Shown one piece after another: positions 7,184-22,802 of a stretch of DNA of 64,000 nucleotides; within the stretch, counting starts at the first letter, position 1; every line of letters begins with the position of its first letter. The notes under the pieces were generated by a model. The model made no database searches. It had not been told where the DNA came from and saw nothing but the letters and a program-made list of their open reading frames with translations. The stretch spans positions 7,299-71,298 of the forward strand of contig CAZROP010000002.1 of NCBI GenBank assembly GCA_964601935.1. The letters are read 5' to 3'. The position numbers were made by a program, and so were the translations under genes. The stretch is from an uncultured Candidatus Saccharibacteria bacterium (GTDB taxonomy: Bacteria > Patescibacteriota > Minisyncoccia > Phycocordibacterales > UBA1006).

Positions 7184-7636
7184 TTAATCGTTCTCATCAC
7201 CTACTTCCTGAAGTATCCTCACACAGCTACATCGGTTCTGTCCGTAGCTATGACCCAGGAGTAGATTGGGTACTCCTCGGTAGGTCTTTTGCCCAATGTT
7301 GAATGACAGACGGTTGTACCACCAGTAATAATGGAACCCTTCCAGTTGTATGAGCTCTTTCCATTTTGTAGGATCGAACTGTACGAGCCGGCAATTGAGG
7401 TTTCGGCTTGCCGATGTGATACATACCTGTTGGGGGCGGGTATCAATTTTTGTAGCTAGAACCCAGGGTGCTGTTAGGTGATGTCCTGTATGGCTATCGG
7501 GCTTAACTTCGCCTGTGACCAGGTTGTAGGTAATCCCAAACTCGTACTGGTCCGTGTAGTGGTAGAGCGCCAAGTACAATACAAATAGTGATAATACAGG
7601 AACTCCGATTCTGATGAAAAGTTTTCGCTTATTCAT
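7184..7636 (-). CDS. membrane-anchored protein, paralog of the upstream gene (possible SPFH/band-7-like)
   Basis: 150 aa from the internal ATG (MNKRKLF...); N-terminal TM; alignable with the 7629..8129 product (DQYEFGITYNLVTGEV / DSYELGYSFDKTTGRI; DTRPQQVCI / DLRPMQVRI). Confidence 0.4.
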   Translation of the reverse strand: MNKRKLFIRIGVPVLSLFVLYLALYHYTDQYEFGITYNLVTGEVKPDSHTGHHLTAPWVLATKIDTRPQQVCITSASRNLNCRLVQFDPTKWKELIQLEGFHYYWWYNRLSFNIGQKTYRGVPNLLLGHSYGQNRCSCVRILQEVGDEND

Positions 7637-8129
7637 TGTCCTGACTGTTTTGCGACTGACCCCCTGCAGAACCCCCAGTACCGCCCATAATTTCCAAAAA
7701 CAAGTATTTCTCTTGTAGTTTTTGCTGGCTGTATGCTCCTGACCCCATACCCTCATAGGCATAGGACTTGAGGATATCAGACAGTACTGCCTGGGTGTAG
7801 TCTTTTCTTCCATGCAGTTCGAGAAACTGTTCGAGCCCAGCCGGTTTAAATCGGACAAGCATCGCATTGAGGATTCTGTCATTAGCCTCAATGCGAACCT
7901 GCATAGGTCGCAGGTCTACAGTGTGCACTTCTGTAATAAAGGGTTTAACCCAGGCCCAGCCTGTGTGCTCTAATACTGTGATACGACCTGTAGTTTTGTC
8001 AAAACTGTAGCCTAGCTCATAACTATCCACAAGTGTGACAAAAAATGTACGAATAGAGCATCCTCCTACTAAGAGGATGACAAGGGCTGATCCGAGGATA
8101 ACCCACTTTTTTGACCAAATGTTTTCCAT
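7629..8129 (-). CDS. membrane-anchored protein, possible short SPFH/band-7-like
   Basis: 166 aa; TM then LEHTGWAWVKPFITEV resembling the SPFH motif GLHFxIPFIDxV; stop overlaps the next start in ATGAATAA. Confidence 0.45.
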   Translation of the reverse strand: MENIWSKKWVILGSALVILLVGGCSIRTFFVTLVDSYELGYSFDKTTGRITVLEHTGWAWVKPFITEVHTVDLRPMQVRIEANDRILNAMLVRFKPAGLEQFLELHGRKDYTQAVLSDILKSYAYEGMGSGAYSQQKLQEKYLFLEIMGGTGGSAGGQSQNSQDNE

Positions 8130-10274: not shown

Positions 10275-12653
10275 TTATATATTACTTCTCGTCGCGAATT
10301 GTATGATTGTTGTAGCTTGTGTGCTGGGCTGTAGGGTGATTGTTTTTGTATCAGAAGAGACAACGTAGGACGCATTTGCAGAATCTACAGTTTTGGCTCC
10401 AGCAGGGATGAGAATTGTCATTGGACTGGTGATGCCTTTTGCAGTTATCTCGTATTTTTTCAGTGTTGGGTTGTACGTGGTAGAAATAACGGCACGTTCT
10501 TTTACTGTTATGGTGAAGTCGGTACCATAACGTAGTTTCAGAGCATCTCGTGAAAAGATATTAGTAGAGTTTTTTGTAGTGTTTTCACTCACAATCAAAA
10601 TTCGCCCGTCTGTTTCTAGATCTTGGGTCAATTTTGAAGCAGTCTTTGCTATGGTCATGAGCGTTTGGTTTGCCTTGCCCATTACAAAATGTTTACCATC
10701 AACGTCAGTCACTGTTGCGCCGGATGCTTCTGCTGTGGTGAGAGGCGCCTTTACGATATCAACCGCTGATGATTTATTATGAGGATACAGGATTGATATC
10801 CAGTTGTCTCCTCGTGAGACGGTATTCATTGATAGAACTGTGTGCGTCCCGGTTTTATCATAATCAGTTTCGTGCACAGCCTGGAATGTTTCGCGGTTTT
10901 GACGACTGTTACGTGAAGCAGAAAAGGCTGTGAGACGTGTTACTCCATCAGCACGATCCCATATATCCATGTCGCGTACCTGTGAATAGGTGCCGACACC
11001 ATGCAGCAGAAACTCGGCTCGTCGTCGGGTATTCAGATCCGCGTCATCATTGATAACGAGGAATTTGTCGTTAGTCATTACAAATTCGCGTGTCACCTGG
11101 GCGTTACCGTAATGAGATCGAATGAGAGCCTGTTTGAATACGCCACGGTCAAAATTGTTGAGAAACTCCACGCCCTCGCTCACTTTGCCGTCACCATCCT
11201 TGGGTGCGCCTTGATCCAGATAGATGAGGCTGTGGTTCTTTGCTTTGGATACTTCATCTCTGCGATCCCAACGAATGTATCCAGGGTCATAGGTTACATA
11301 ATCCCCATTGAAAAACATAAAGAAGCTGGTCTCGTCGCCCTGGTTGTGTCCGCCCGCTGTTTCCAGTGCACGACCGCCTTTTGCCTGAATATGTAGATAG
11401 AGCGCTTTTGGATCCCAGCTGCTACGATAGACAATGTCTCCTGATTCTTTGTTCAGCCACCAGGTTGGTCCTGTTGGCGCAGTAGGTGTCTGTAGTGATC
11501 CCAGATACTCGGCACGGAGATCGGTGATTTCGTTGATGCCTGATACTACTGGTTTGTATGTTTGGGTAAAGAATGTACCAGGAACATCAGCAATGGCTAC
11601 CTCTGGCCACGTCATATTGGTAAAGCTGTCCTCGATCGCAGGAATTCTGCCGTCGGGCAGTCTAATCATATTGGCCCACTCGTACAGTCGGGTATAGTCT
11701 CTGTTGTATGCTGGATGCTGATAGGTGTGCGTCTTGCTACCTAGTTTCCAGGTATGTGTACCGTCAGGTACATAATTCTTGAGTGCCTCAAAAAATGGCA
11801 GCATGTTTTTCATTGCGTATTTCAGGTAATAGGGACCCTCTGTATATCCATAAATACCTGGTGGTGTTGATACGCCTGACTTTCGCTTGTGATGCCCGAA
11901 CAAAACCTCATGAATACTCCACATGCCGGCATTGACCCATTTCGAGGCATCTTTGTGTTCGTTCAATACGATGCCGCCCAATCCAATAGCAGAGGCCGTC
12001 ATGAGTGAGTGATTGTTAATAATAGTTGTTGCTATAGACACACCGACAATCCCTTCAGTAAATTTATCATGCAAGTCTCCTGTAAATTGCTCTAGTTTTA
12101 TTCGTGCGTTTTTCAGTCTTTCAGGAGGAACATTAGCGCCGAGAAGTAGATCATAAGCGGTCAAATAATTGATGAGCTCTTTTGATCGCCACTGCCATTC
12201 GGTGTAGTTTATTTTGGAGTCAACCGTATTATTATGCACTTCCAGTAGCATGATCGCTTTTTCGGTGAGTTCGGTAATTTTTGGTTGTAACAAAGGCTTC
12301 AGTTCTTTGTCGAGACCTACTAATAGAATAAATGCTATTGCTTTTGCCTGATCTGAGCGGGCCTGGCGACTGCTGGAAGAAGGCGGTATAGGGCTATTTG
12401 CTAAATCAAATAAATCCTTGTATATACCTAGACGCTCCACACTCGCGAGCGACTTCAGGCCGTTTATCATGCCCGGTAATTCTGATTTTTTAATTATAGT
12501 ACGGGGTCGATCTGAATTTGCGCCAGACGGGTTCCATTGTGCCAGGGTGGGCAAGGGGGCAGAAATACTGCCTACCGATAGAAGTACTACGATAATAGCT
12601 AGGCTAGATCGCATATGATTACTCATTTTTGTAAACGTTGTGGGTAAGGACAT
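10275..12653 (-). CDS. secreted large protein, tentatively heparinase II/III-like polysaccharide lyase family
   Basis: 792 aa; N-terminal signal peptide (SLAIIVVLLSVGSISAPLPTLA); segment AGGHNQGDETSFFMFFNGDYVTYDPGY resembles the gHgHaDalsF...vDpG motif of the Hepar_II_III C-terminal domain. Confidence 0.4.
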   Translation of the reverse strand: MSLPTTFTKMSNHMRSSLAIIVVLLSVGSISAPLPTLAQWNPSGANSDRPRTIIKKSELPGMINGLKSLASVERLGIYKDLFDLANSPIPPSSSSRQARSDQAKAIAFILLVGLDKELKPLLQPKITELTEKAIMLLEVHNNTVDSKINYTEWQWRSKELINYLTAYDLLLGANVPPERLKNARIKLEQFTGDLHDKFTEGIVGVSIATTIINNHSLMTASAIGLGGIVLNEHKDASKWVNAGMWSIHEVLFGHHKRKSGVSTPPGIYGYTEGPYYLKYAMKNMLPFFEALKNYVPDGTHTWKLGSKTHTYQHPAYNRDYTRLYEWANMIRLPDGRIPAIEDSFTNMTWPEVAIADVPGTFFTQTYKPVVSGINEITDLRAEYLGSLQTPTAPTGPTWWLNKESGDIVYRSSWDPKALYLHIQAKGGRALETAGGHNQGDETSFFMFFNGDYVTYDPGYIRWDRRDEVSKAKNHSLIYLDQGAPKDGDGKVSEGVEFLNNFDRGVFKQALIRSHYGNAQVTREFVMTNDKFLVINDDADLNTRRRAEFLLHGVGTYSQVRDMDIWDRADGVTRLTAFSASRNSRQNRETFQAVHETDYDKTGTHTVLSMNTVSRGDNWISILYPHNKSSAVDIVKAPLTTAEASGATVTDVDGKHFVMGKANQTLMTIAKTASKLTQDLETDGRILIVSENTTKNSTNIFSRDALKLRYGTDFTITVKERAVISTTYNPTLKKYEITAKGITSPMTILIPAGAKTVDSANASYVVSSDTKTITLQPSTQATTIIQFATRSNI

Positions 12654-12773
12654 AGTGATGTATTGAGAGATCGGATAACACGCATATTGTACCGCGCCAC
12701 CCTAGCAAACGTATGGGGATATGTGGTGGTCAGCCATGGGTATGGTCATTAGAAGAATAACGATAAAGCAAGA

Positions 12774-13121
12774 TCACTTCCTCAATGCGTTGATGGTCTG
12801 TGTCTGGTTTTCAATAATTTGTAGCATTTTTCTATTCTCATTAATTAACGATTGGTTGACCTCTAATATTTGTTCACGCTCTTCAATTTTTTGAGAATAC
12901 TCTTTGTAAGTCACAGAATTTATATGAAAAGAATCAATGACTAGTGTTGCCACCATAATTATCATCGTAATGAATGCCACAATGAAAATTCCTATAATTA
13001 GGTTGGTCTGCGTATCGTATCTTGTCAGGATTGCCTGTATTTCAGACTTGGGGTCAGAAAATTCAATTGAGGGATTATTGTTTTCTTTAAGATCTTTAGA
13101 GAATGTAATACTCTTTTTCAT
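12774..13121 (-). CDS. hypothetical small membrane/coiled-coil protein
   Basis: 115 aa; one TM (IIGIFIVAFITMIIMVATLVI) then a heptad-like C-terminus. Confidence 0.3.
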   Translation of the reverse strand: MKKSITFSKDLKENNNPSIEFSDPKSEIQAILTRYDTQTNLIIGIFIVAFITMIIMVATLVIDSFHINSVTYKEYSQKIEEREQILEVNQSLINENRKMLQIIENQTQTINALRK

Positions 13122-13125
13122 AAGT

Positions 13126-13341
13126 TTAGTAGACGCCTTTAATTACAATTACCTCTCCATCGACGTCCACTTCAAAATCTCGATTTCTGAATTGTGTGAA
13201 ATCTACCCCAGATATATTTACACCTTGTCCAAATCGAACCCCAGGCCCAAAAGTAACACCGCCTACGCGAGTGCGCTGCCTTGGCTCCACTGAGCCATCC
13301 GGATAAGTATTAAAGAGTGATTCAAAGTTAAGCCTTGCCAT
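13126..13341 (-). CDS. hypothetical Gly-rich small protein
   Basis: 71 aa from an internal ATG (the track start is GTG); 4-nt spacing to the next gene. Confidence 0.25.
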   Translation of the reverse strand: MARLNFESLFNTYPDGSVEPRQRTRVGGVTFGPGVRFGQGVNISGVDFTQFRNRDFEVDVDGEVIVIKGVY

Positions 13342-13391
13342 ATAGCAATCATTATACACCTTTTATATATTTAAAATCCGGTTTGTAGTCA

Positions 13392-13401
13392 CCCCCCCCC
13401 C
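13392..13401. repeat. homopolymeric C10 tract (G10 on the coding strand of the flanking – strand genes)
   Basis: read directly: acccccccccc immediately 3' of the stop of the 13401..13757 gene and 40 nt upstream of the next start. Confidence 0.85.
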
Positions 13402-13757
13402 TAGTCCGCAGTTTTGAAAGTCCATTCATTAATATTTAGTAAGACCAAAGCATCATCAGGCTCTCCCCAGATTGAAGAGCTTTTATCCCAATAAAAGAAG
13501 TGTGAGTTGTTGCTCTGGTTTTTGCTAACCTTGTATGAGCCTGCTTTAGTATAAATAACAACCAGGTCGTCTTTTTTAACTTCCTGATCTTGAAACCAGA
13601 AGGTTTCAGACACCCGACTGGAGACACTTGTCTCAGAAGATTTATTAGACTTAAAAATAGCATATTGCCCTACGTCAGTATCTTCCAAAACCCTCAGAAC
13701 AACGCGTTCCTTTTGTATATTGCCGATATCTTCAATTCCCATAATTTTTAATCGCAT
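13401..13757 (-). CDS. hypothetical protein
   Basis: 118 aa, no motif recognised. Confidence 0.3.
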   Translation of the reverse strand: MRLKIMGIEDIGNIQKERVVLRVLEDTDVGQYAIFKSNKSSETSVSSRVSETFWFQDQEVKKDDLVVIYTKAGSYKVSKNQSNNSHFFYWDKSSSIWGEPDDALVLLNINEWTFKTAD

Positions 13758-13760
13758 ACA

Positions 13761-14210
13761 TTATTTTTTTCTATGTAACCAGTCAGGATCTATGAAAGCT
13801 AAGGCAAAACTTATTACACATAATACAAAAATTCCTAACCGATATTGCTCCAAATCTGAGACAAAAATTAAGCCCCCCAATAATCCGCCTATAGCGTATA
13901 GAAGAGATCTGACTGTTACAGAATCTTTTAACCCTATTAAGCGTTCAGTTAATACGGCAAGTTCTTCACTTTTTTTATAATAATCTTCTTTAAATATTTT
14001 TAATTCAGTCAGATCGCGTCCTAGACGGGAAATTTCGCCTAACAGGATCTTGGTCACTAACCTTAAGTTTTTCGCATTTTTTATTTCCTCTTCCGTTATA
14101 ATGCTGTTCAGACCTGACCATGGAGTTTTGGCGTTTGCAAGGGACTTGATATCTTCGGCTTCAAATGAGACTGTCGGCTCCTCGTCAGGTTTTCCTATTT
14201 TTCTAGCCAT
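13761..14210 (-). CDS. hypothetical protein with C-terminal TM hairpin
   Basis: 149 aa; coiled-coil-like middle, C-terminal GGLLGGLIFVS...IFVLCVISFALAFI. Confidence 0.35.
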   Translation of the reverse strand: MARKIGKPDEEPTVSFEAEDIKSLANAKTPWSGLNSIITEEEIKNAKNLRLVTKILLGEISRLGRDLTELKIFKEDYYKKSEELAVLTERLIGLKDSVTVRSLLYAIGGLLGGLIFVSDLEQYRLGIFVLCVISFALAFIDPDWLHRKK

Positions 14211-14751
14211 ATTATATTAAGCTGCAGTTTAAATGTAAATACATAAAATAAGTAAGAGTTGTTTTGCCAATGTTGCCACAAGAGGACTTAGCTCGAAGTT
14301 TTGAAGTTTTTATCAATAATATAGGCTTATTTCAGACGTGGACCGAAAATATGCGCAATTTTATGACTAAAGATAGGGAAGAGTCAGTTTCGACTATTAA
14401 ATTATAGGGCACCCGTGATATAATTGCTATATATGATTACAAATAGGAAAGATAATCTCACAGATGTTATACAAGCTTCGCCGACAAAACCGAGCTCAGT
14501 CCCATCTACTGATTCGCCCAGTAAACCTGGTCCTCAGCAGGTGGTAGATAATACCGGACAGGTTGTAACATTGGGAAAATAGGGGTGTTCTAATCGTTTT
14601 TAGTATATAGGAAAAAACACTCGAAGTTTTACGGGTTTTCTATTGTGTATTTTAAACAAGCGAATACAGGCAAGGCAAATTCTTTTCCCAAAAAGAAGAA
14701 TTTGACGATGTCTGTAGATTCGCTTGTTACAAAATTTATAAACTCCTACGA

Positions 14752-15561
14752 TTATGGGGTGTCTGGCCTACTAGGATGAGTCTCTTCGGTAGCTGGTTCA
14801 GCGCGAGTGGCAAACAGTCCTGACTCAAATTCAAGCTTACGAGCTGGTATTATCACTTTTGTTAAATAGGTAATCAAGTTGTCTAGAATGTCTTTACATT
14901 CTCCAGTGAGGTTTTGGTACTTTTCAGATACTTGTAAATCCATAAAATTCCATTCGAGTCCTACTAGACCCTCAGCGGTTACTAAAAGTATTAATTCTCT
15001 AATGTAATTCTCAGCTTCCCCCTGATTTTTCACAAGGAGGTGTCGAGTAATCTTTAGGTATAAAAGTATAATTTTGTCTGAGGATTCGTGGAAAATATCC
15101 TTACTTAGAGAGTCAGTTTTTTCTGACATGTACATATATTGGTCAAACTTTTCATAATCTCCGGTTAGTAGTAATGCCTCGCATAGGTTCGTAAAAATAC
15201 GTGGATCCGGTCTTATGTAGAATGCTTCCACCCACTTTTTACCAGCGTGTACGTAGTGGTGTCTATGAAGTGCTTGTGCGGCTGCTTCATCCAGGCTAAT
15301 AAATCGAGTTTCAACTAACTGTCGTAATGCATAATATGCCGCAAATATCCCGAGCAGTAAGGTGGCAGCTTGGATCATTAGATTAAGTATAGCTACTTTC
15401 TCTGATAGGTCAGAGGGCTTAGTCGCTAAAAATATGATATATGTGATTACAGAGAGAATAACTAAAATCCCTATCAGTACGGTCTGAAATCTTTTATTAA
15501 ATGAGGGGTAGGGGAGTATCTTTTCCCAAAAATTCTTCGCCACTTTCTTCATACTACTCAT
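14752..15561 (-). CDS. hypothetical membrane protein
   Basis: about 269 aa from the ATG (the track start is TTG); two N-terminal TM helices. Confidence 0.4.
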   Translation of the reverse strand: MSSMKKVAKNFWEKILPYPSFNKRFQTVLIGILVILSVITYIIFLATKPSDLSEKVAILNLMIQAATLLLGIFAAYYALRQLVETRFISLDEAAAQALHRHHYVHAGKKWVEAFYIRPDPRIFTNLCEALLLTGDYEKFDQYMYMSEKTDSLSKDIFHESSDKIILLYLKITRHLLVKNQGEAENYIRELILLVTAEGLVGLEWNFMDLQVSEKYQNLTGECKDILDNLITYLTKVIIPARKLEFESGLFATRAEPATEETHPSRPDTP

Positions 15562-15775
15562 CAAGATTAAAAATTACTTTCCCTTTACCAAAGGCAGCAA
15601 TTCGTTCTAGTGAAGAAGGCAGCATTCTGTGGCAATTGCGTATTATTAAGGTCGCACCTGATTGCGCTGCAAGTGCAGCAAAACGCTCCAGCGTGGCTGG
15701 AAGATACTTTGGAGCATCGACAGATACTCCGCCCCCAAATGCAATTATTCTTTCTATCGATTGAGGTAAAAACAT
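15554..15775 (-). CDS. small internally repeated protein (hypothetical)
   Basis: 73 aa; two copies of S(I/L)ERI(I/A)AFG(G/K)G; overlaps the downstream gene by 8 nt; competing +strand ORFs make it uncertain. Confidence 0.25.
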   Translation of the reverse strand: MFLPQSIERIIAFGGGVSVDAPKYLPATLERFAALAAQSGATLIIRNCHRMLPSSLERIAAFGKGKVIFNLDE

Positions 15776-15824
15776 ACAAAGGCCAAGGTGAATTAGCTAC
15801 GTAATCTTACCATAACGCCCGTGT

Positions 15825-16607
15825 TTAACAATTCAATGCCTTCCTCCATCCAGCCTGGATCGCATCCTGTTCAGAGCAAAACCACTTCTCACCCTCTGAT
15901 TCGTCGATGATGGTAGCATTATAGGACCTGCATCCTTGGACATGGTAGATCTTCTCTTTCTTTGCATTGGTACTGATATTTCCTTTGATGGTACAAGAGG
16001 AGGTTGGAGCAGGTACGGTAGCTTGAGCTACTGGAGTAGCGACAATTGCTGTAGGTACAACCGTTTTCAGTGTCCCAGAAGCCGTATTTTGACACGTAGA
16101 GCCCCATAATCCTTTCTTTTGGTCTGATGCCTGTTTCTGTGCACTCTTGAATTCTACTTGATATTTGTAGGGTAGATCATAGGTATACTCGTAAGCATAT
16201 CCATCCTTGATCATAGAGAGGTTTACATTGGTCCCATTTGATAGGAGTACATATCGTAAAAGACGGCCGTACTTGTCTTTATCCCCCTGAGTATCATCTT
16301 TTTCTAGGAATACCTTTTTACCAGTCAGCAAAGACTTTGCCTTATTAGATGCTTCTTTACCAAAACACTCTACTGGTTTACGAGGATCTACCGTTTCTGG
16401 TGTGTTTACACCAATGAGACGTATACGTTCTTTTTTGCCACTGATCATTACATCGATGGTATCTCCATCCACAACCCTTACTACTTTGTAGAGTTTGGAT
16501 GATTGAGCGGTCTGGGTGGTAATAGGCACTGTACTGGTTGTTTGAGCCAGTAGCAGGCTCGGGTTAAATGTGAGGGCGAGGGTTAGGGTGATGAGAAGGG
16601 TTTTCAT
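15825..16607 (-). CDS. secreted thermonuclease (staphylococcal nuclease/SNase-like) with C-terminal Cys-containing domain
   Basis: 260 aa; signal peptide; VVRVVDGDTIDV...RIRLIGVNTPE...YGRLLRYV matches the SNase motifs; C-terminal IYHVQGCRSY...WFCSEQDAIQAGWR. Confidence 0.75.
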   Translation of the reverse strand: MKTLLITLTLALTFNPSLLLAQTTSTVPITTQTAQSSKLYKVVRVVDGDTIDVMISGKKERIRLIGVNTPETVDPRKPVECFGKEASNKAKSLLTGKKVFLEKDDTQGDKDKYGRLLRYVLLSNGTNVNLSMIKDGYAYEYTYDLPYKYQVEFKSAQKQASDQKKGLWGSTCQNTASGTLKTVVPTAIVATPVAQATVPAPTSSCTIKGNISTNAKKEKIYHVQGCRSYNATIIDESEGEKWFCSEQDAIQAGWRKALNC

Positions 16608-16612
16608 ATTGA

Positions 16613-17224
16613 TTATTTAATATTAACTTTAGCATCACAAGAGTTGCTTCCTGTAGGTTCAGCCTTTAAGAAGTCGCACAACTTGTAAACTTCAAAGTTC
16701 TGCCAGTTTATCTTTTCGAATAAGTTTCGGTCCATTGAATAGTATAGCGCTAAATTATTTGAAACATTGCCATACTTGTCAGTAGTGTCAGCGTAATAGT
16801 GGATATCTATATCCTGAACCTTAGGATATATGGAGTATATATCCTGGAAGAGTTTGCCAGAGACTTGTCCTGTCTCTCGATAGAGCGATTTAGCAGTAAG
16901 AAAGTCTCCAACATGTAATTTCACAATAACTTGCTTTGAATCTACTCCAGAATCAACCATCTCTGCATGTACATAGGTAAAGGTTTTTGAAGTGCGAGAT
17001 ATGGTTGTCGCCGTTCCTCGTTCAAAAGATTGTGCATATATTGATACTATAGGGGTTGCATCTACTTTTTTCTGAACCTCCTTAGCTTCTTCGCCTGGAT
17101 CAAAGAAATTATTAATACGACCTATTACAATAATGAATAGAATAATTCCTCCTATGAGTGTGAGGATTGGGTGTTTTTCAAACCAGGTGGGTTGTTCTGA
17201 ATCTGGGGTTGGGTGTGGGTTCAT
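16613..17224 (-). CDS. membrane-anchored hypothetical protein (first gene of the nuclease operon)
   Basis: 203 aa; single N-terminal TM; 5-nt gap to the nuclease gene. Confidence 0.4.
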   Translation of the reverse strand: MNPHPTPDSEQPTWFEKHPILTLIGGIILFIIVIGRINNFFDPGEEAKEVQKKVDATPIVSIYAQSFERGTATTISRTSKTFTYVHAEMVDSGVDSKQVIVKLHVGDFLTAKSLYRETGQVSGKLFQDIYSIYPKVQDIDIHYYADTTDKYGNVSNNLALYYSMDRNLFEKINWQNFEVYKLCDFLKAEPTGSNSCDAKVNIK

Positions 17225-17513
17225 AAATGGTGCTTGATAGGGCTTTTAATAAGTTCATGAAAGGCTTCATACAAAAAGCCCGCCACGAGTAGAGACCGAA
17301 GTCTCTCATACCTGTTTCCAGGTATGGCCTATCAAGCAAACCCCATGACGGGTTCTTTATGCTTGATAGGGCTTACAAAAATTGACCATGCCTAGCGGGT
17401 TTCGCTAGGGTTAGGTCCCTATTAACTTGTCCAAGGTAGTATATACCTTTTTGGTCCAAAATCTATGGGTGTGCGTTAAAAAAGATAGGTGTATAATGAA
17501 TAAGCGATAGCTT
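17225..17513. promoter_or_regulatory. structured divergent intergenic region with a repeated TGCTTGATAGG motif and three hairpins
   Basis: motif at about 17232 and 17361 (direct) and about 17326 (inverted); hairpins gagaccgaagtctc, catacctg-tttc-caggtatg, cctagcg-ggttt-cgctagg; TGTATAAT -10 at about 17490-17497. Confidence 0.35.
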
Positions 17514-17909
17514 ATGAAGTGCCAATTTGTCAAAGCAAATAAGGACCAATGCAGATGTCATGCGGTAAGCGGTGATAGCTTTTGCTTTAATCATTCTGAA
17601 AAGACAAAAAACCAGAAGCTGAATGCGGTTCGTAAGGGTGGATATGCCATGAAGTTTAAACCCAGCATTATGACCAGTCCGATACCTTTGCGTACAGGAG
17701 CGGATATTCTGGGCCTGCTTGAAGATATTGTAGGCGGTCTCAAAGTTGGCCCCATTACACCACAAAAAGCTAACTCTCTAGTGAGTATTGCAGGACTTGC
17801 GTTGAAAGTGCAAGAAACAAGTCAGGGGGTGAAAGAGCCTATGACGGTGTTTGATTTGTTGAAGGAGAAGTTGCATAAGGATAAAGTAAAAGAGCAGGCT
17901 CTAATTTAA
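17514..17909 (+). CDS. hypothetical protein with N-terminal Cys/His cluster (possible Zn-ribbon regulator)
   Basis: 131 aa; CQFVKANKDQCRCH...CFNH; first gene of a tightly spaced 4-gene operon. Confidence 0.35.
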   Translation: MKCQFVKANKDQCRCHAVSGDSFCFNHSEKTKNQKLNAVRKGGYAMKFKPSIMTSPIPLRTGADILGLLEDIVGGLKVGPITPQKANSLVSIAGLALKVQETSQGVKEPMTVFDLLKEKLHKDKVKEQALI

Positions 17910-17927
17910 TATACTAATAGATAAATT

Positions 17928-18836
17928 ATGAATAAATATAAAATACAACAAATAATCTCAACAATGGCAGAGTGCGCTGTTCTGAGCGGCAGCAGCGACT
18001 CCTCTTTTGTGGAGGGTATGTATAAGTTTTCACATGTTGGTTATTCACCATCCAGTGGTTGGCGGGATCGTGCTTGGGTTGCAGAGGCTGTGGTCGAGGG
18101 TTTAGACATTAATGACGCGTATCGTAAATTCTCTCAAGGTCTTACTAAAATTACCTCAAGGATTTCACTCGTTGGTCAAGCTTGTATTGATTATCATAGA
18201 GAATCTTTCTTGATCCATAAGATGGGGAGTTCTGTTGCACTTTTTCGTTATATCCATCGAGGAGAAGGTGTTGGTTTAATGTTTATGGATAAGGAAGTTA
18301 AAGCCTTAAGGATATTGCTGTTAGATAAATTTTTGCCCGATAACTTTTTTCTATACTGGAACGAAGCTACGAATATAAGTAATTACTCTGCAAAGCTTCT
18401 ATTAATGTTTTCAGCGCTTGAGACTATTATCACAAAAGATCAGACTTCTAAGAATTGGCAGTTATTAAACGATATTCTGGGCAGTAACGTGGTAAAAGAC
18501 TGTTTTGGGGAAAGGGGTAACTCAAGCATAGGATTAAGAAATCGCTTAGTACACGGAGAATACTTCTCAGTGGGAGACTTTGATAAAGATTATGTAACTC
18601 TTATACATGACGGTGTGATTAAATATATAAATAACAATATTTTGCAGGCTAAACTAATTGAGGAAGACGTCGTCTCTCCACAGCGAGGTTTTGAAGAGGT
18701 CGATCAATTGAGGTCTTATATAAAGTTAGCTGATAGCACAACTGAATTTTCAATTGAAGCTCTTGTCAGAGACGCCTCAAAAGACTTTCAAAATCCTGAA
18801 ACCTTTGAGTATGTGGCGCCAGGTCTCCATTATTAG
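17928..18836 (+). CDS. HEPN-motif protein A (putative RNase, toxin-like)
   Basis: 302 aa; C-terminal IGLRNRLVHGEY fits the HEPN Rx4-6H motif; paralogous to the next gene. Confidence 0.5.
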   Translation: MNKYKIQQIISTMAECAVLSGSSDSSFVEGMYKFSHVGYSPSSGWRDRAWVAEAVVEGLDINDAYRKFSQGLTKITSRISLVGQACIDYHRESFLIHKMGSSVALFRYIHRGEGVGLMFMDKEVKALRILLLDKFLPDNFFLYWNEATNISNYSAKLLLMFSALETIITKDQTSKNWQLLNDILGSNVVKDCFGERGNSSIGLRNRLVHGEYFSVGDFDKDYVTLIHDGVIKYINNNILQAKLIEEDVVSPQRGFEEVDQLRSYIKLADSTTEFSIEALVRDASKDFQNPETFEYVAPGLHY

Positions 18837-18844
18837 AATATATT

Positions 18845-19891
18845 ATGAAAAAAATATTTATTGGATTTGTAGGTCAAAGTGACGAGCTCACTGAAAAAAT
18901 CTTAGAAATACAAGAGGGTTATGAGATATGGAATTTGAAACTGTTTAGTCTCGAAGAATTCACCAAAATCGTTAAAGACAGAATACCGCCCGTGAATAAT
19001 AACGTTATAAATAATTATATTGTTGAGGAGTATAACGAGAACTATGGTATCACAGAAGAGTATTTTTCTCGCTGTACGTGGGGCTTATTTATACCAGATA
19101 GCTTGGGTGATGTTTCTGGTGATAGTTTTTCAGAGACTATGTTTTTATTAAATCTTTTTTCGCCATCTTTCCTGTATCCAATATTCTACGTAACTGACTT
19201 CGGTGTAACGGTAAAAAGGTATGATAATAGAAAGATACTCTCCTTTGGAAACTCACAAGGACAGGCAAAGTTATTTACTTCTTCGAACTTCGTAGACTTT
19301 TTTAAAACCCTGCTTCCGTCATCGGCATATAGCGGTACTTGGCAGCTTGATCGTGTTCAGGTTTGGAAGAAAGAAGACTGGAGATTGTTCGTTGCAGGCA
19401 TGCTATTCTCTGACTTACGAGTCTATGATAATAGCAAAAGTGCGCTGACGTGGCAAAGAGAATCAGTGGAAATGAGTATGGTACTAGAATCACTATTTAT
19501 AGCTGATGATACCAATAGTGAAGAAATAGGGTACAGGTTAAGGAAAAGAATTGCTGTACTGCTTTCAGTGTATTTTCCTAATATTGAAAATGATATTAAA
19601 GAACTTTATAAGGCTAGAAGCGAGTTTGTTCATGGATCATTTTATCTTAAGCTTGCAAAGAGTAGTGACCAGTTACCTACGCCCAACTTTAACTTGTTAC
19701 ACCAACAAACGGAGTTTGTGCGTTGGTCGTTAATTGGGTGCCTTCATTTGTTTCAAGTTATCAATAACGGTTCTAAATACCCCCAGAAGTCAGTAATGAG
19801 TGTGTTAGAAGCTGCTATCGTTGACGTTAAACTTCGTGAAAGTATATTAAATGATGTAAGTGAAGTGTTTTCTCTCTTGCCAACTATTTAA
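18845..19891 (+). CDS. HEPN-motif protein B (paralog of A)
   Basis: 348 aa; C-terminal ELYKARSEFVHGSF (Rx4HG) in the same relative position as in A; 8-nt spacing. Confidence 0.5.
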   Translation: MKKIFIGFVGQSDELTEKILEIQEGYEIWNLKLFSLEEFTKIVKDRIPPVNNNVINNYIVEEYNENYGITEEYFSRCTWGLFIPDSLGDVSGDSFSETMFLLNLFSPSFLYPIFYVTDFGVTVKRYDNRKILSFGNSQGQAKLFTSSNFVDFFKTLLPSSAYSGTWQLDRVQVWKKEDWRLFVAGMLFSDLRVYDNSKSALTWQRESVEMSMVLESLFIADDTNSEEIGYRLRKRIAVLLSVYFPNIENDIKELYKARSEFVHGSFYLKLAKSSDQLPTPNFNLLHQQTEFVRWSLIGCLHLFQVINNGSKYPQKSVMSVLEAAIVDVKLRESILNDVSEVFSLLPTI

Positions 19892-19915
19892 ATTGGCTCA
19901 TAATTGCTTTATCCT

Positions 19916-21079
19916 ATGAAAAAACCGCAAAAAGAAGCAAGTAAGCCTCCAATAAAAAGGAAGACAAGATCATCCAAATCTGCTTTGAGTTATATAAGTG
20001 ATTATGCAGGTAGGTGGCTGGATGATCAGATAGGATTCTTTAAGGAGTGTAAGATTTCTCAAGAAGAGGTAGACAGTGCGAAATTGCATTGGCATGAGCT
20101 TGCCAAAATATACGATGACCATAAGTCTAGGGAAGTTTTGCTATCGACAACAGCAAATACGATCTCTCAAATCATCCAGGGAATGTCAAAGGTCCACAGT
20201 GTTCGTTTAAGAATAAAAGATCCCGCTAGTCTGATTGGAAAAATTGTAAGAAAGCGCAAGGCAGATCCTAATAGAGATATAAATTATAATAACTACAAAG
20301 ACGAAATTACAGATTTAATCGGAATAAGGATACTACACTTGTTAAAATCGGATTGGGAAAGTATCCATAGAGGTCTTTTTGATCATTTCTCTGCTAAAGG
20401 GAAGCCAGTAGCTTATATTCGTGAGGGCGATTCTAATGAGTGGATTACTATGTATAAAAACGCAGGTTGTAGGGTTGAAGATCACGAACGTAGATATAGG
20501 TCAGTTCACTATGAGGTGAAAGTAGGTATCACGAAAGAGCCTATAATTGCTGAAATTCAGGTCAGGACAATCCATGAAGAAAGTTGGAGTGAGCTTGATC
20601 ACGCCATCAATTATCCCGTACAGGCGTCACTAATCATCCAGAATCTTTTGAGCACCCTAAACCAACTTGCTGGGATATCAGATGAGCTAAGCGCATACAC
20701 AATGTACGTTTTTAATGCGTTCGAAGAACAAAAGGCGGAAATAGAGATGCTCCAAAATAGTTACTCAGCAAAACTTTCTGAAACGGAGGAGTTAATCAAC
20801 AGGTTAGAGGTTAAAGAAGCAGAAAAGACTAAAATAAAAGAAAAGCTTAAAGATTTAGAAACAAAAGGTAACTCAGCTATGGGCTTTTCAGAAAGTAATA
20901 CCGTTTTTTCGACCTCAGGTTTGCAACTTAGGACAAACTTTGCTGCCCCTATCTTTGGCAGCAATAACCACGACCCGACATCAGCTGTAAGACGGTGCGC
21001 AAGGTGTAAAGGTTTTTTGTTTGGTGGTTCCATCGGGAGTAATTTATGCGCTGTTTGTTCCGTTGCTTATAGAGTATAG
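19916..21079 (+). CDS. RelA/SpoT-homolog (RSH) synthetase-fold nucleotidyltransferase with C-terminal Cys4 element (toxSAS-like)
   Basis: 387 aa from the ATG (the track start is TTG); motifs SLIGKIVRKRK, DLIGIRILHL, RYRSVHYEV, EIQVRTIHEESWSELDH match the RelA_SpoT synthetase core; then a coiled-coil and CARCKG...CAVCS. Confidence 0.7.
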   Translation: MKKPQKEASKPPIKRKTRSSKSALSYISDYAGRWLDDQIGFFKECKISQEEVDSAKLHWHELAKIYDDHKSREVLLSTTANTISQIIQGMSKVHSVRLRIKDPASLIGKIVRKRKADPNRDINYNNYKDEITDLIGIRILHLLKSDWESIHRGLFDHFSAKGKPVAYIREGDSNEWITMYKNAGCRVEDHERRYRSVHYEVKVGITKEPIIAEIQVRTIHEESWSELDHAINYPVQASLIIQNLLSTLNQLAGISDELSAYTMYVFNAFEEQKAEIEMLQNSYSAKLSETEELINRLEVKEAEKTKIKEKLKDLETKGNSAMGFSESNTVFSTSGLQLRTNFAAPIFGSNNHDPTSAVRRCARCKGFLFGGSIGSNLCAVCSVAYRV

Positions 21080-21135
21080 GTAAGTATGCTAATTAGACTT
21101 TCTACTTAACTCTTCTCTTGATACCGAAAAATCAT

Positions 21136-22761
21136 ATGGACATTAACATTTTAATGGATAGTTTGAACAGTGATAGGCAGAGTGTGGAAGACGCTAAGGA
21201 TATTAAGTATGTTATCTACGCCCGGAAGTCTACGGATGACATGGGTAAGCAGGCTCGGTCCTTGGCAGATCAGGTGTCAGAGTGTCAGCAATACGCACTC
21301 ACCCACAATCTGCGTTGTGACCCGACCCCTATTATAGAGTCTGAGTCAGCAAAAGAGCCCGATATTCGACCCAAGTTTAGACAAATGATGGAAGACCTCA
21401 AAAGAGGAAAGTATGGAGGAGTTATTGCCTGGCACCCTGATAGATTATCTCGAAACATGAAGGACGCAGGGGAGATTATAGATCTCGTGGACAAGAGTGT
21501 TATTCGTGACTTGAAGTTCGTAAGTTTTGTATTTGATAATACTACTAGCGGAAAGATGCTTTTAGGTATGACCTTTGTACTATCTAAACAGTACTCAGAT
21601 GCTTTAAGTGACAACGTTAACCGTGGTAATAGAAAGAGTGTTGAAGAGGGAAAGTATATCAATAAAGCGAAACACGGTTACTACAAGGACCCTAACCAGT
21701 ATCTAAGACCTGATACCCATAATAATAATTTTATTCTGATAAAAACTGCTTTTAGAATGCGCCTGGATGGAGCTGGGTTGGATGAAATTGTTAAGTACCT
21801 AAACGAAAATAACTACTCAAAAGCAAATACTGGTCAGTATAGAACAATATTTAAAATGACGAAGCAGCGTGTATCAAGCTTTCTCTCTGATCCGATTTAT
21901 ACAGGTGTATACCGTTATGGCGGAATAGAAGCAGTTAACCTTGTTGAAAAGTATCATTTTGAGCCAATGATAACTGTTGAGGAGTTTGCAAAAATAAATA
22001 AACGAATATTCCCAAGCCTTGGTAGGTCCGCTCGTAAGAAGGATGGGGTACGAGCAGATTTTATGGTTAAAAGAGTTCGCTGTAGTTTTTGTGGCGAAGC
22101 AATGTCTACAGGTATTAGTGGAAGCAGAGCAGATTCCGGCGAAAAGACAGAGTACTTCTATTACCGATGTGAGACCGAAAAGTGCGTCAGGCATAACAAG
22201 TCGACTCGCGCAAAGGTTATTGTTGATTATGCAGTTGAGTTCCTGCAAACATTACCGTTCTCATCAGAGGCAAGTTACGATCACTACTTGAAGGAAATGG
22301 ACAGGTTGAGTACACAAAAAGTAACCAAATCTAAAGAAAGGGTAAAAAGTTTGCAGACAAAGAGAGTATTTTTAGTAGAAAGAGAAAAAAAGGTAAAAGA
22401 AATGCTACTTAACGAAAAAGATGGTCGTATTAAAGATGAGTTTCGAGGGGATTTTGAACTGATAAAAGATCAGGTCTCTAAAATAGAACAAGAAATAACT
22501 GATCTAAAAGAGATAATTACTGGCGGTAAAACTGCTCCGGCTACCTATAGCGAGTTCCTCGAAGTTTTAAAGAAAATGCCTTTATTTATTAGGGAAATTA
22601 AGAGTTTAAGCGAGTTAGATTTTTTTATGAAAAAAATCTTCTCGAACCTCACTGTTAATGGTAAAAAAGTCATAAAAACAACGCTTGCTGCGCCCTTTGA
22701 TAAGTTGTATAAACTAAGTAATCCTGCTTTGTTGCCCGATAAGGACTCGAACCTCAATTAA
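21136..22761 (+). CDS. large serine recombinase (integrase)
   Basis: 541 aa; resolvase catalytic motif YVIYARKSTDD, recombinase domain, Zn ribbon CSFCGE...YYRCETEKC, coiled-coil C-terminus; last 10 codons overlap tRNA-Gln. Confidence 0.85.
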   Translation: MDINILMDSLNSDRQSVEDAKDIKYVIYARKSTDDMGKQARSLADQVSECQQYALTHNLRCDPTPIIESESAKEPDIRPKFRQMMEDLKRGKYGGVIAWHPDRLSRNMKDAGEIIDLVDKSVIRDLKFVSFVFDNTTSGKMLLGMTFVLSKQYSDALSDNVNRGNRKSVEEGKYINKAKHGYYKDPNQYLRPDTHNNNFILIKTAFRMRLDGAGLDEIVKYLNENNYSKANTGQYRTIFKMTKQRVSSFLSDPIYTGVYRYGGIEAVNLVEKYHFEPMITVEEFAKINKRIFPSLGRSARKKDGVRADFMVKRVRCSFCGEAMSTGISGSRADSGEKTEYFYYRCETEKCVRHNKSTRAKVIVDYAVEFLQTLPFSSEASYDHYLKEMDRLSTQKVTKSKERVKSLQTKRVFLVEREKKVKEMLLNEKDGRIKDEFRGDFELIKDQVSKIEQEITDLKEIITGGKTAPATYSEFLEVLKKMPLFIREIKSLSELDFFMKKIFSNLTVNGKKVIKTTLAAPFDKLYKLSNPALLPDKDSNLN

Positions 22762-22802
22762 CGGTACCAGAAACCGCTGTCCTACCATTAGACGATCGGG
22801 CA
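22732..22802 (-). tRNA. tRNA-Gln (anticodon CTG)
   Basis: hand-folded cloverleaf: acceptor TGCCCGA/TCGGGCA, T-arm TGAGG-TTCGAGT-CCTTA, anticodon loop TTCTGGT; no encoded CCA. Confidence 0.8.

Follow-up and report, generated by a model that had tools for sequence, protein, structure and literature searches.

We describe here two adjacent genes, referred to as A and B, that lie in a 64,000-nucleotide stretch of DNA from an uncultured Candidatus Saccharibacteria bacterium (contig CAZROP010000002.1, positions 7,299 to 71,298 of the forward strand). This whole stretch is called the window below, and coordinates are those of the window unless a locus is named. The two genes are on the + strand and are separated by 8 nt. 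They belong to a head-to-tail run of five open reading frames (ORFs) on that strand, which encode a protein of 131 residues, A, B, a RelA/SpoT homologue (RSH) and a large serine recombinase, with successive gaps of 18, 8, 12 and 38 nt. An earlier interpretation, the sequence-only reading, had taken A and B to be tandem paralogous HEPN proteins with unrelated N-terminal domains, which might form a heterodimeric RNase and might be linked to the nucleotidyltransferase next to them. The features of the two genes are as follows.

17928..18836, + strand: gene A, family-A protein (likely HEPN), 302 residues
18420..18422, + strand: E165 of A, conserved acidic residue of the upstream helix (SAxE motif), at least 90% conserved; model helix 153-168
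18537..18554, + strand: predicted catalytic Rx4H motif of A, RNRLVH (R204...H209); R204 and H209 invariant in 37 sequences; end of model helix 203-208
18845..19891, + strand: gene B, family-B protein (likely HEPN), 348 residues
19487..19489, + strand: E215 of B, acidic residue of the LExLF helix; invariant in the 39-sequence alignment and in the extended B clade
19616..19633, + strand: predicted catalytic Rx4H motif of B, RSEFVH (R258...H263); invariant in 39 close sequences; end of model helix 247-262

HEPN motifs in A and B

The definition of a HEPN domain calls for a conserved Rx4-6H, which in most cases has a polar residue (N, D or H) directly after the arginine and is located where the end of a helix runs into a loop; a further conserved acidic residue lies N-terminal to it, often in the form Ex3[KR] (PMC3710099). 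Both ORFs were confirmed at the coordinates listed, and the peptides on which the sequence-only reading was based are present where it had placed them. These are KLLLMFSALETIITKD (residues 156-171) and LRNRLVHGEYFS (203-214) in A, and VLESLFIADD (213-222) and ARSEFVHGSFYL (257-268) in B, with an inter-motif spacing of 31 residues in A and 34 in B. A bare Rx4H is uninformative by itself, as it is present in 23 of the 50 ORFs in the window of at least 150 residues, or about 0.6 times per 300 residues. The extended motif R[NDHS]x3HG is found in A and B only, across the whole window.

The alignments of the two families show which of these residues are retained. Among the 37 sequences of family A, no variation is seen at R204, R206, H209, G210 and Y212, and at least 90% conserve E165. 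Among the 39 of family B, the invariant residues include E215, R258, F261, H263 and G264. When eight B-family sequences were aligned jointly with 22 distant relatives (30 sequences), E215, Y255, R258, S259 and H263 were still invariant, and RSxxxH is kept in all 37 of the distant B relatives examined. The consensus of A around E165 is SAIEALVKK, giving an Ex3K that matches the acidic-residue part of the HEPN definition. In B, E227x3R231 is nearly invariant, and is found in the helix after that of E215. The residue following the motif arginine is N or H in A and S in B, the latter being polar, but not the typical N, D or H. Since the arginine, histidine and glutamate are conserved across both families, the E...Rx4H module that had been noticed is real and under selection. 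Each family also has invariant motifs of its own outside Rx4H (WxxEDWRLF and WQRE in B, YWNDA and PQR in A), which are candidates for a pocket or an interface.

Structure prediction and family assignment

AlphaFold2 (AF2) models generated from the alignments are confident, with a pLDDT of 88.5 and pTM of 0.87 for A, and 90.1 and 0.91 for B. A is predicted to consist of a β-rich domain (residues ~1-111 together with C-terminal strands at 257-296) arranged around a central all-α HEPN core (~119-245). B is predicted to have an N-terminal α/β domain (~1-125), a helical linker that carries WxxEDWRLF and WQRE, and a C-terminal HEPN core (~196-348). The placement of the motifs was read from the secondary structure of these models. 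In A, Rx4H is at the end of helix 203-208, and is followed by a loop and by helix 222-239; in B, it is at the end of helix 247-262, after which come a loop or short helix and then helix 282-307. In both, the conserved glutamate lies in an earlier helix. The HepT structures 7ae2, 8xdj and 5yep are among the top structural matches of both cores, with moderate scores. A Foldseek search of B against the PDB gave nothing significant. The invariant R, H and E, the position of the motif at the end of a helix in the models, and the polar residue after the arginine make it likely that A and B are HEPN-superfamily proteins, and to this extent the sequence-only reading holds.

Full-length homologues are numerous, with 198 matches for A and 154 for B. 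A profile of B run against 1.84 billion representatives recovered 282 relatives, of which the distant ones match the C-terminal region only, in other architectures; ten distant relatives of the B HEPN core gave no Pfam domain. A and B represent two uncharacterised families, likely HEPN, and no model in Pfam, NCBIfam, PADLOC or PHROGs covers either. PDB sequence searches using full-length A and B profiles and a broadened B-clade HEPN-only profile gave no meaningful matches. A matches Pfam HEPN_MAE_28990 (PF18737) over residues 119-236 with E = 5e-4, at 20.7 bits and hence under the gathering threshold of 26.8 bits. Membership of A in this family was considered and rejected, as the match is sub-threshold and is made by only one of the 37 family members (E<0.01).

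It is worth adding that two B homologues, P0207 and P0209, are about 540 residues long. P0207, in this longer form, is a family-B fusion variant with precomputed Pfam AIG2_2/GGACT (gamma-glutamyl cyclotransferase-like) domains.

Relationship and co-occurrence of A and B

The description of A and B as paralogues does not survive comparison of the two proteins. BLASTP finds no similarity between them, and the hhalign probability is 1.3% for the complete proteins, 8% when only the HEPN regions are compared, and 17% when the broadened B profile is used, the alignments in all cases covering the E...Rx4H module only. When the two halves are compared by profile, the C-terminal E...Rx4H modules thus do align, but with a similarity that is not significant (8-17%), while the N-terminal parts (0.9%) are unrelated, which agrees with the sequence-only reading. 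Judged by these comparisons, any ancestry shared by A and B would be at superfamily level at most, and a tandem duplication is ruled out.

Loci were sampled from genomes and metagenomes, 85 containing an A homologue and 30 a B homologue (L001-L115). At least 1.2 kb of flanking sequence was available downstream in 43 of the A loci, and on each side in 26 of the B loci. An obligate A+B system should have the two genes adjacent in most genomes that possess either. They were found together in none of the 115 loci (A in 0 of 30 B loci, and B in 0 of 85 A loci), in a test whose power is limited by many short metagenomic contigs. The closest B homologues (54% identity) are found behind a protein of ~700 residues in a C5-methylase/BsuBI restriction-modification (RM) operon, or in another island without A. 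The closest A homologue is directly after a DUF5677 gene, and B is absent.

The same is true of RSH. None of the 115 A/B loci was matched by a profile of the RSH family, and 81 RSH loci, of which 76 were from IMG/VR, gave no match to the profiles of A and B, including HEPN-only sub-profiles at E<=0.01. With co-occurrence at 0/115 and 0/81, the arrangement of A, B and RSH is therefore unique to this element. These counts speak against the heterodimeric RNase with two half-sites, for which even the closest homologues of A and B lack the partner, and equally against the suggested link to the neighbouring nucleotidyltransferase.

Genomic neighbourhoods of the two families

Context counts were made on dereplicated informative loci, considering neighbours within 3 kb. 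An RM-type gene is found within this distance of A in 13 of 35 loci, and the most frequent immediate neighbours of A are N6_Mtase, N6_N4_Mtase, Eco57I, HsdS, GmrSD/HNH, EcoRI methylase and Mrr. For B, a large serine recombinase is found in 8 of 23 loci and an RM-type gene in 5 of 23. B is typically the last gene, and often follows a variable upstream gene with a gap of 0-13 nt or an overlap of 4 nt. The genes that precede it encode the ~700-residue protein (four loci), Shedu SduA_C-like, Vsr, MutH-like and GmrSD proteins, small membrane peptides, and a recombinase.

The ~700-residue protein lies 1-8 nt upstream of B (L015 3825-5984, L016 943-3030, L017 3885-5987 and L198 2915-4999). Two of the copies are 53% identical, and the L198 copy is inside the C5-methylase/BsuBI RM operon. 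It has no Pfam or PDB match, and may form a two-gene system of its own with B. In two other loci (L013 2909-3154 and L033 2162-2434), similar proteins of 81-90 residues with a C-terminal membrane helix (...KLTWWIVGLT...) are encoded directly upstream of B, after a gene for a Vsr or MutH-like nuclease. The closest A homologue is located in a block of the form DUF559 - 147 aa - DUF5677 - A (L199-L201, 4181-5924). This block has three different flanking contexts, which suggests that it is a mobile cassette.

A and B are absent from the IMG/VR scans, and tblastn against PLSDB plasmids and INPHARED phages was empty; both genes therefore look chromosomal or island-borne, rather than phage or plasmid genes. 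AbiJ, AbiU2, AbiD/F, ApeA and other HEPN families show the same accessory-defence signature in RM operons (PMC3710099), and the neighbourhoods of A and B are the signature of accessory defence genes.

The RSH protein

The gene that follows B, after 12 nt, is the following.

19904..21079, + strand: RSH (RelA/SpoT homologue), a nucleotidyltransferase resembling small alarmone synthetases (SAS), 391 residues

RSH matches Pfam RelA_SpoT (1.8e-16) and phrog_2211 (1.8e-42), and its catalytic motifs TDLIGIR, YRSVHY and EIQVRT do not vary among 32 homologues. The family has a conserved catalytic N-terminal region of ~260 residues and highly variable C-termini, which in the window copy consist of a coiled coil and CxxC...CxxC. 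The homologues stand alone in three genomic contexts, or come after an Xre-type helix-turn-helix gene. They are common in viral contigs, with 76 IMG/VR loci (L122-L197) and further relatives in prophage records. RSH has no PADLOC match, and the conserved adjacent antitoxin gene that marks a toxSAS module was not found. In the PDB, RSH matched by sequence only RelQ, RelP, YwaC and YjbM, which are housekeeping SAS enzymes, and these matches are weak (E 1e-5 to 4e-3). Identification of RSH as CapRel was rejected, there being no profile match and no PDB match to CapRel or FaRel2.

RSH looks like a third independent cargo module and not a conserved partner of A and B. It is plausibly toxSAS-like, possibly with a fused C-terminal antitoxin. 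One further locus bears on the relation of B to alarmones. In L012, an HD_4 domain protein (7345-8028) is encoded 285 nt downstream of a close B homologue, on an island without an RSH synthetase. Beyond the cluster itself, this gene is the only indication that B might be connected with alarmone metabolism.

The gene cluster and its island

The remaining features of the cluster and its surroundings are listed here.

~12000-22800 (roughly 10 kb): low-GC island, with the recombinase and tRNA-Gln at its right edge
15825-16607, - strand: SNase-domain protein, secreted-looking; PADLOC defence candidate PDLC01096 'SNc+LTD' (9.9e-51)
17291-17417, - strand: LOOT RNA (RF03000), Rfam full-length match, 80.9 bits (gathering score 46.4)
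17514..17909, + strand: ORF of 131 residues, first co-directional gene of the cluster; Cys-rich N-terminus
21118..22761, + strand: large serine recombinase, 547 residues; Pfam Resolvase, Recombinase and Zn_ribbon_recom; phrog_95 integrase (2.5e-62)
22731..22802, - strand: tRNA-Gln(CTG), identified by ARAGORN and by Rfam tRNA; overlapped by the 3' end of the recombinase gene

GC content is 0.37-0.41 over about 12-23 kb, compared to 0.43-0.50 in the flanks. The tRNA-Gln is probably the attachment site, and probably marks the right edge of the low-GC island. On the basis of the low GC and of the overlap between recombinase and tRNA-Gln, the cluster is therefore considered to be recombinase-proximal cargo of this island. 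No direct repeat of at least 16 nt and no att-type repeat was found at the island ends, and the left boundary is undefined; the absence of a long direct repeat fits a serine recombinase.

The 131-residue protein has no family matches in Pfam, PADLOC, NCBIfam or PHROGs, and no relative within the A/B loci. A scan for promoters and terminators gave sites at a frequency no higher than in shuffled sequence, with no terminator-like site in the intergenic gaps and one inside B. The SNase+LTD protein is a further defence-type gene on the same island as A and B. The LOOT RNA sits in a divergent intergenic region of 290 nt directly upstream of the A/B cluster, where a 15-nt direct repeat, TGCTTGATAGGGCTT, occurs at 17231, beside the RNA, and at 17360, inside it.

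Proposed function of A and B

The explanation that we favour, with a probability of about 0.6, is that A and B are independent and self-contained HEPN RNases of the abortive-infection type, which are stacked with the SAS-like RSH as island cargo. In each protein, a HEPN core that retains the complete E...Rx4H site would be joined to a non-HEPN domain particular to that protein. Judging by the fold and by the invariant catalytic residues, each is most likely a metal-independent RNase of abortive-infection or toxin type, and what is generally known of HEPN proteins suggests that each probably works as a homo-oligomer, with the active site between two copies. ApeA is activated by deoxydinucleotides, which bind in a pocket away from the catalytic centre (bioRxiv 10.64898/2026.01.26.701840), and by analogy the extra domain of A or B probably serves to sense a cue, or keeps the site blocked until infection. 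Once active, the enzyme would cut host or phage RNA, and growth would stop. The two genes would move separately among RM operons, defence islands and integrative elements, and A, B and RSH would be carried together here because the island gathers defence cargo beside its recombinase.

A number of observations weigh against this explanation. Profiles do not link A and B to the curated HEPN families (one of 37 members for A, below threshold, and none of 39 for B), and the short contigs noted above limit what the co-occurrence counts can say. The tight spacing on one strand, with no terminator-like site between the genes, makes co-transcription of the cluster possible, and with it some functional coupling. 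Further, every other ORF of at least 120 residues in the dereplicated A/B loci was scanned for R[NSDH]-x-h-h-H[GDNS]. This HEPN-type motif is present in 7 of 77 adjacent same-strand ORFs against 3 of 709 others (odds ratio 23.5, Fisher p = 6e-6), an enrichment directly beside A and B of about 20-fold relative to elsewhere in the same loci, in which only the DUF4209 and DUF3644 neighbours are confirmed by profile (Pfam) and the rest are motif-based. In one locus (L014 4177-7074) a single ORF of 965 codons fuses DUF4209, a C6orf70-type HEPN domain with the motif RNDFAHG, in frame to a complete B. DUF4209 is counted as a HEPN family (PMC3710099). In L026, DUF4209 and B are separate genes with a 4-nt overlap. 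The order in L021 is a DUF4209-like gene, a gene for a protein of 376 residues, and B, and the 376-residue protein has an A-like HEPN core (BLASTP E = 7e-4; hhalign 33%). Next to A, ORFs of 148-325 residues carrying RNQLAHS, RNRYVHS or RHAMAHG are found in L092, L114, L107 and L113/115, some of them cut by contig ends, and in L001-L003 A is followed by DUF3644, which is another HEPN family.

The enrichment and the DUF4209::B fusion mean that cooperation between unlike HEPN proteins stays conceivable, although they do not rescue an obligate A-B heterodimer. In HEPN proteins the active site is generally built where the two halves of a dimer meet, and two unlike HEPN domains are brought together in Cas13 and in some Csx1 proteins; such HEPN dyads have been catalogued (PMC3710099). 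A and B, which are on the same strand and 8 nt apart, could on this precedent form a hetero-oligomer with a composite site, to which each contributes one Rx4H, or one could regulate the other. In a generalised form, B would pair with any HEPN gene that precedes it, as the HEPN-type genes directly before B in L014, L026 and L021 would allow, and those next to A in the loci named above could be read in the same way. We nevertheless regard cooperation as unlikely. The exact pair does not recur in any of the other 115 loci, the majority of A and B genes are without a HEPN neighbour, and the partners most often coupled to B are not HEPN proteins at all, being the ~700-residue protein (four loci), nucleases of the Shedu-like, Vsr and MutH-like kinds, and small membrane peptides. 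A partner that varies in family is contrary to an obligate heterodimer interface. The enrichment is motif-based, and crowding at insertion hot-spots could also yield it, in which case defence genes of an abundant superfamily have simply piled up at shared insertion points. It is decidedly improbable that the tandem unlike HEPN genes (A-B, A-like-B in L021, DUF4209-B and A-DUF3644) represent a functional class of RNases that assemble as hetero-oligomers around a composite site, comparable to a Cas13 divided between separate genes, in which B would be a promiscuous 'second half' behind different first-half nucleases. Should the enrichment reflect hetero-oligomeric HEPN enzymes, rather than island crowding, it would reveal a new way to build such RNases.

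Other explanations assign a role to the neighbouring genes. One or both HEPN proteins might be toxins, neutralised by the 131-residue protein, or by RSH acting as MNT does on HepT. HepT-MntA is the best-known case in which a HEPN toxin is coupled to an antitoxin that is a nucleotidyltransferase (PMC3710099; PMC7641770). The tight gene packing would suit a toxin-antitoxin module, and a SocA/Panacea antitoxin domain is found in one of 31 ORFs adjacent to B homologues. We consider this very unlikely, as Pfam identifies no MNT gene in the cluster, MNT is upstream in HepT-MNT modules whereas RSH is downstream here, and neither RSH nor the 131-residue protein ever co-occurs with A or B in the loci examined. 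In addition, the tyrosine spacing of the HepT Rx4HxY motif is not reproduced (HGEY in A, HGSF in B), and A and B are often alone, with no candidate antitoxin. The complete catalytic motifs of RSH, and its start 12 nt after B, would also permit a signalling pathway of three genes, in which infection causes RSH to make an alarmone-like messenger, which binds to the non-HEPN domains of A, B or both and so switches on the RNase. That small nucleotides can activate HEPN RNases allosterically is well established, Csm6 and Csx1 being activated by cyclic oligoadenylates, and ApeA offers a further precedent. The HD_4 protein after the B homologue of L012 is of the RelA/SpoT hydrolase domain type, but this is a single locus among 25 groups, with a gap of 285 nt. 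Given that there is no RSH in 115 A/B loci and no A or B in 81 RSH loci, and that the RSH homologues are stand-alone proteins with variable C-termini, common in prophages, in the manner of fused or solo toxSAS-type effectors, such a pathway is extremely unlikely. Finally, the HEPN domains might not be nucleases at all, and might instead bind nucleotides or other ligands or have a regulatory function, as in HEPN-nucleotidyltransferase fusions or MtlR. Non-catalytic HEPN domains do exist, and these have lost Rx4-6H wholly or partly (PMC3710099). In A and B, by contrast, the arginine, histidine and acidic residue are invariant across a wide divergence, and the contexts are defensive or mobile, not metabolic, which leaves a non-nuclease function with little probability.

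If A and B are indeed independent RNases, two uncharacterised families, each with more than 150 homologues that are mostly from candidate-phyla-radiation bacteria, would be added to the candidate single-gene abortive-infection RNases. To our knowledge, little defence biology has been tested experimentally in candidate-phyla-radiation bacteria (Patescibacteria), to which the genome of the window probably belongs. The advance would be useful but incremental, because it has been clear since 2013 that HEPN domains combined with variable sensor domains occur in RM operons and defence islands.

Comparison with known systems

The resemblance to the type VII HepT-MntA system is that HepT structures are among the best matches of both cores, and that a gene with a nucleotidyltransferase fold is nearby. 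The differences are that there is no MNT gene, that RSH is downstream and is not a conserved neighbour, and that the HxY tyrosine is out of register. A and B are also two to three times larger than HepT, with extra domains.

The HEPN_MAE_28990/MAE_18760 clade shares with A of the window a weak match over the whole HEPN core (119-236). MAE_28990 is found in operons with ParB-type nuclease and DNA methylase genes (PMC3710099), and similarly the A homologues in L001-L003 come after EcoRI-type methylase and GmrSD_N/HNH genes. Against this, the score is 20.7 bits compared to a cutoff of 26.8, only one of 37 A members matches at E<0.01, and B has no match.

Like the dyads of Cas13 and Csx1, the cluster places two different HEPN modules side by side, and the DUF4209::B protein of L014 holds two unlike cores in one polypeptide. 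Unlike in those dyads, A and B are separate genes, whose families are together in none of the 115 loci, and there is no crRNA or CARF component. No CARF- or SAVED-like sensor was detected, and no conserved linkage to a signal synthase was found, such as would be expected of effectors of the Csm6/Csx1 type.

The RSH protein is like toxSAS and CapRel in being a stand-alone SAS-like protein whose synthetase motifs are intact and whose C-terminal extension varies, and in being frequent in prophages. It differs in that it has no PADLOC match and no PDB match to CapRel or FaRel2. Its architecture resembles that of the fused sensor-effector toxSAS proteins, although no known model matches it.

AbiJ, AbiU2, AbiD/F and ApeA differ from A and B in that none of their Pfam or PADLOC models matches either protein and in that the N-terminal domains of A and B are new; the sizes to be set against them are about 305 residues for A and 355 for B. 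The similarities are that these proteins also consist of a HEPN core with a conserved Rx4H and a family-specific non-HEPN domain, and that they are also solo genes, often inside RM operons (PMC3710099, Table 1), as is seen in the contexts of A and B. Of these, ApeA provides a model for how such an enzyme might be switched on by a small ligand bound far from its active site.

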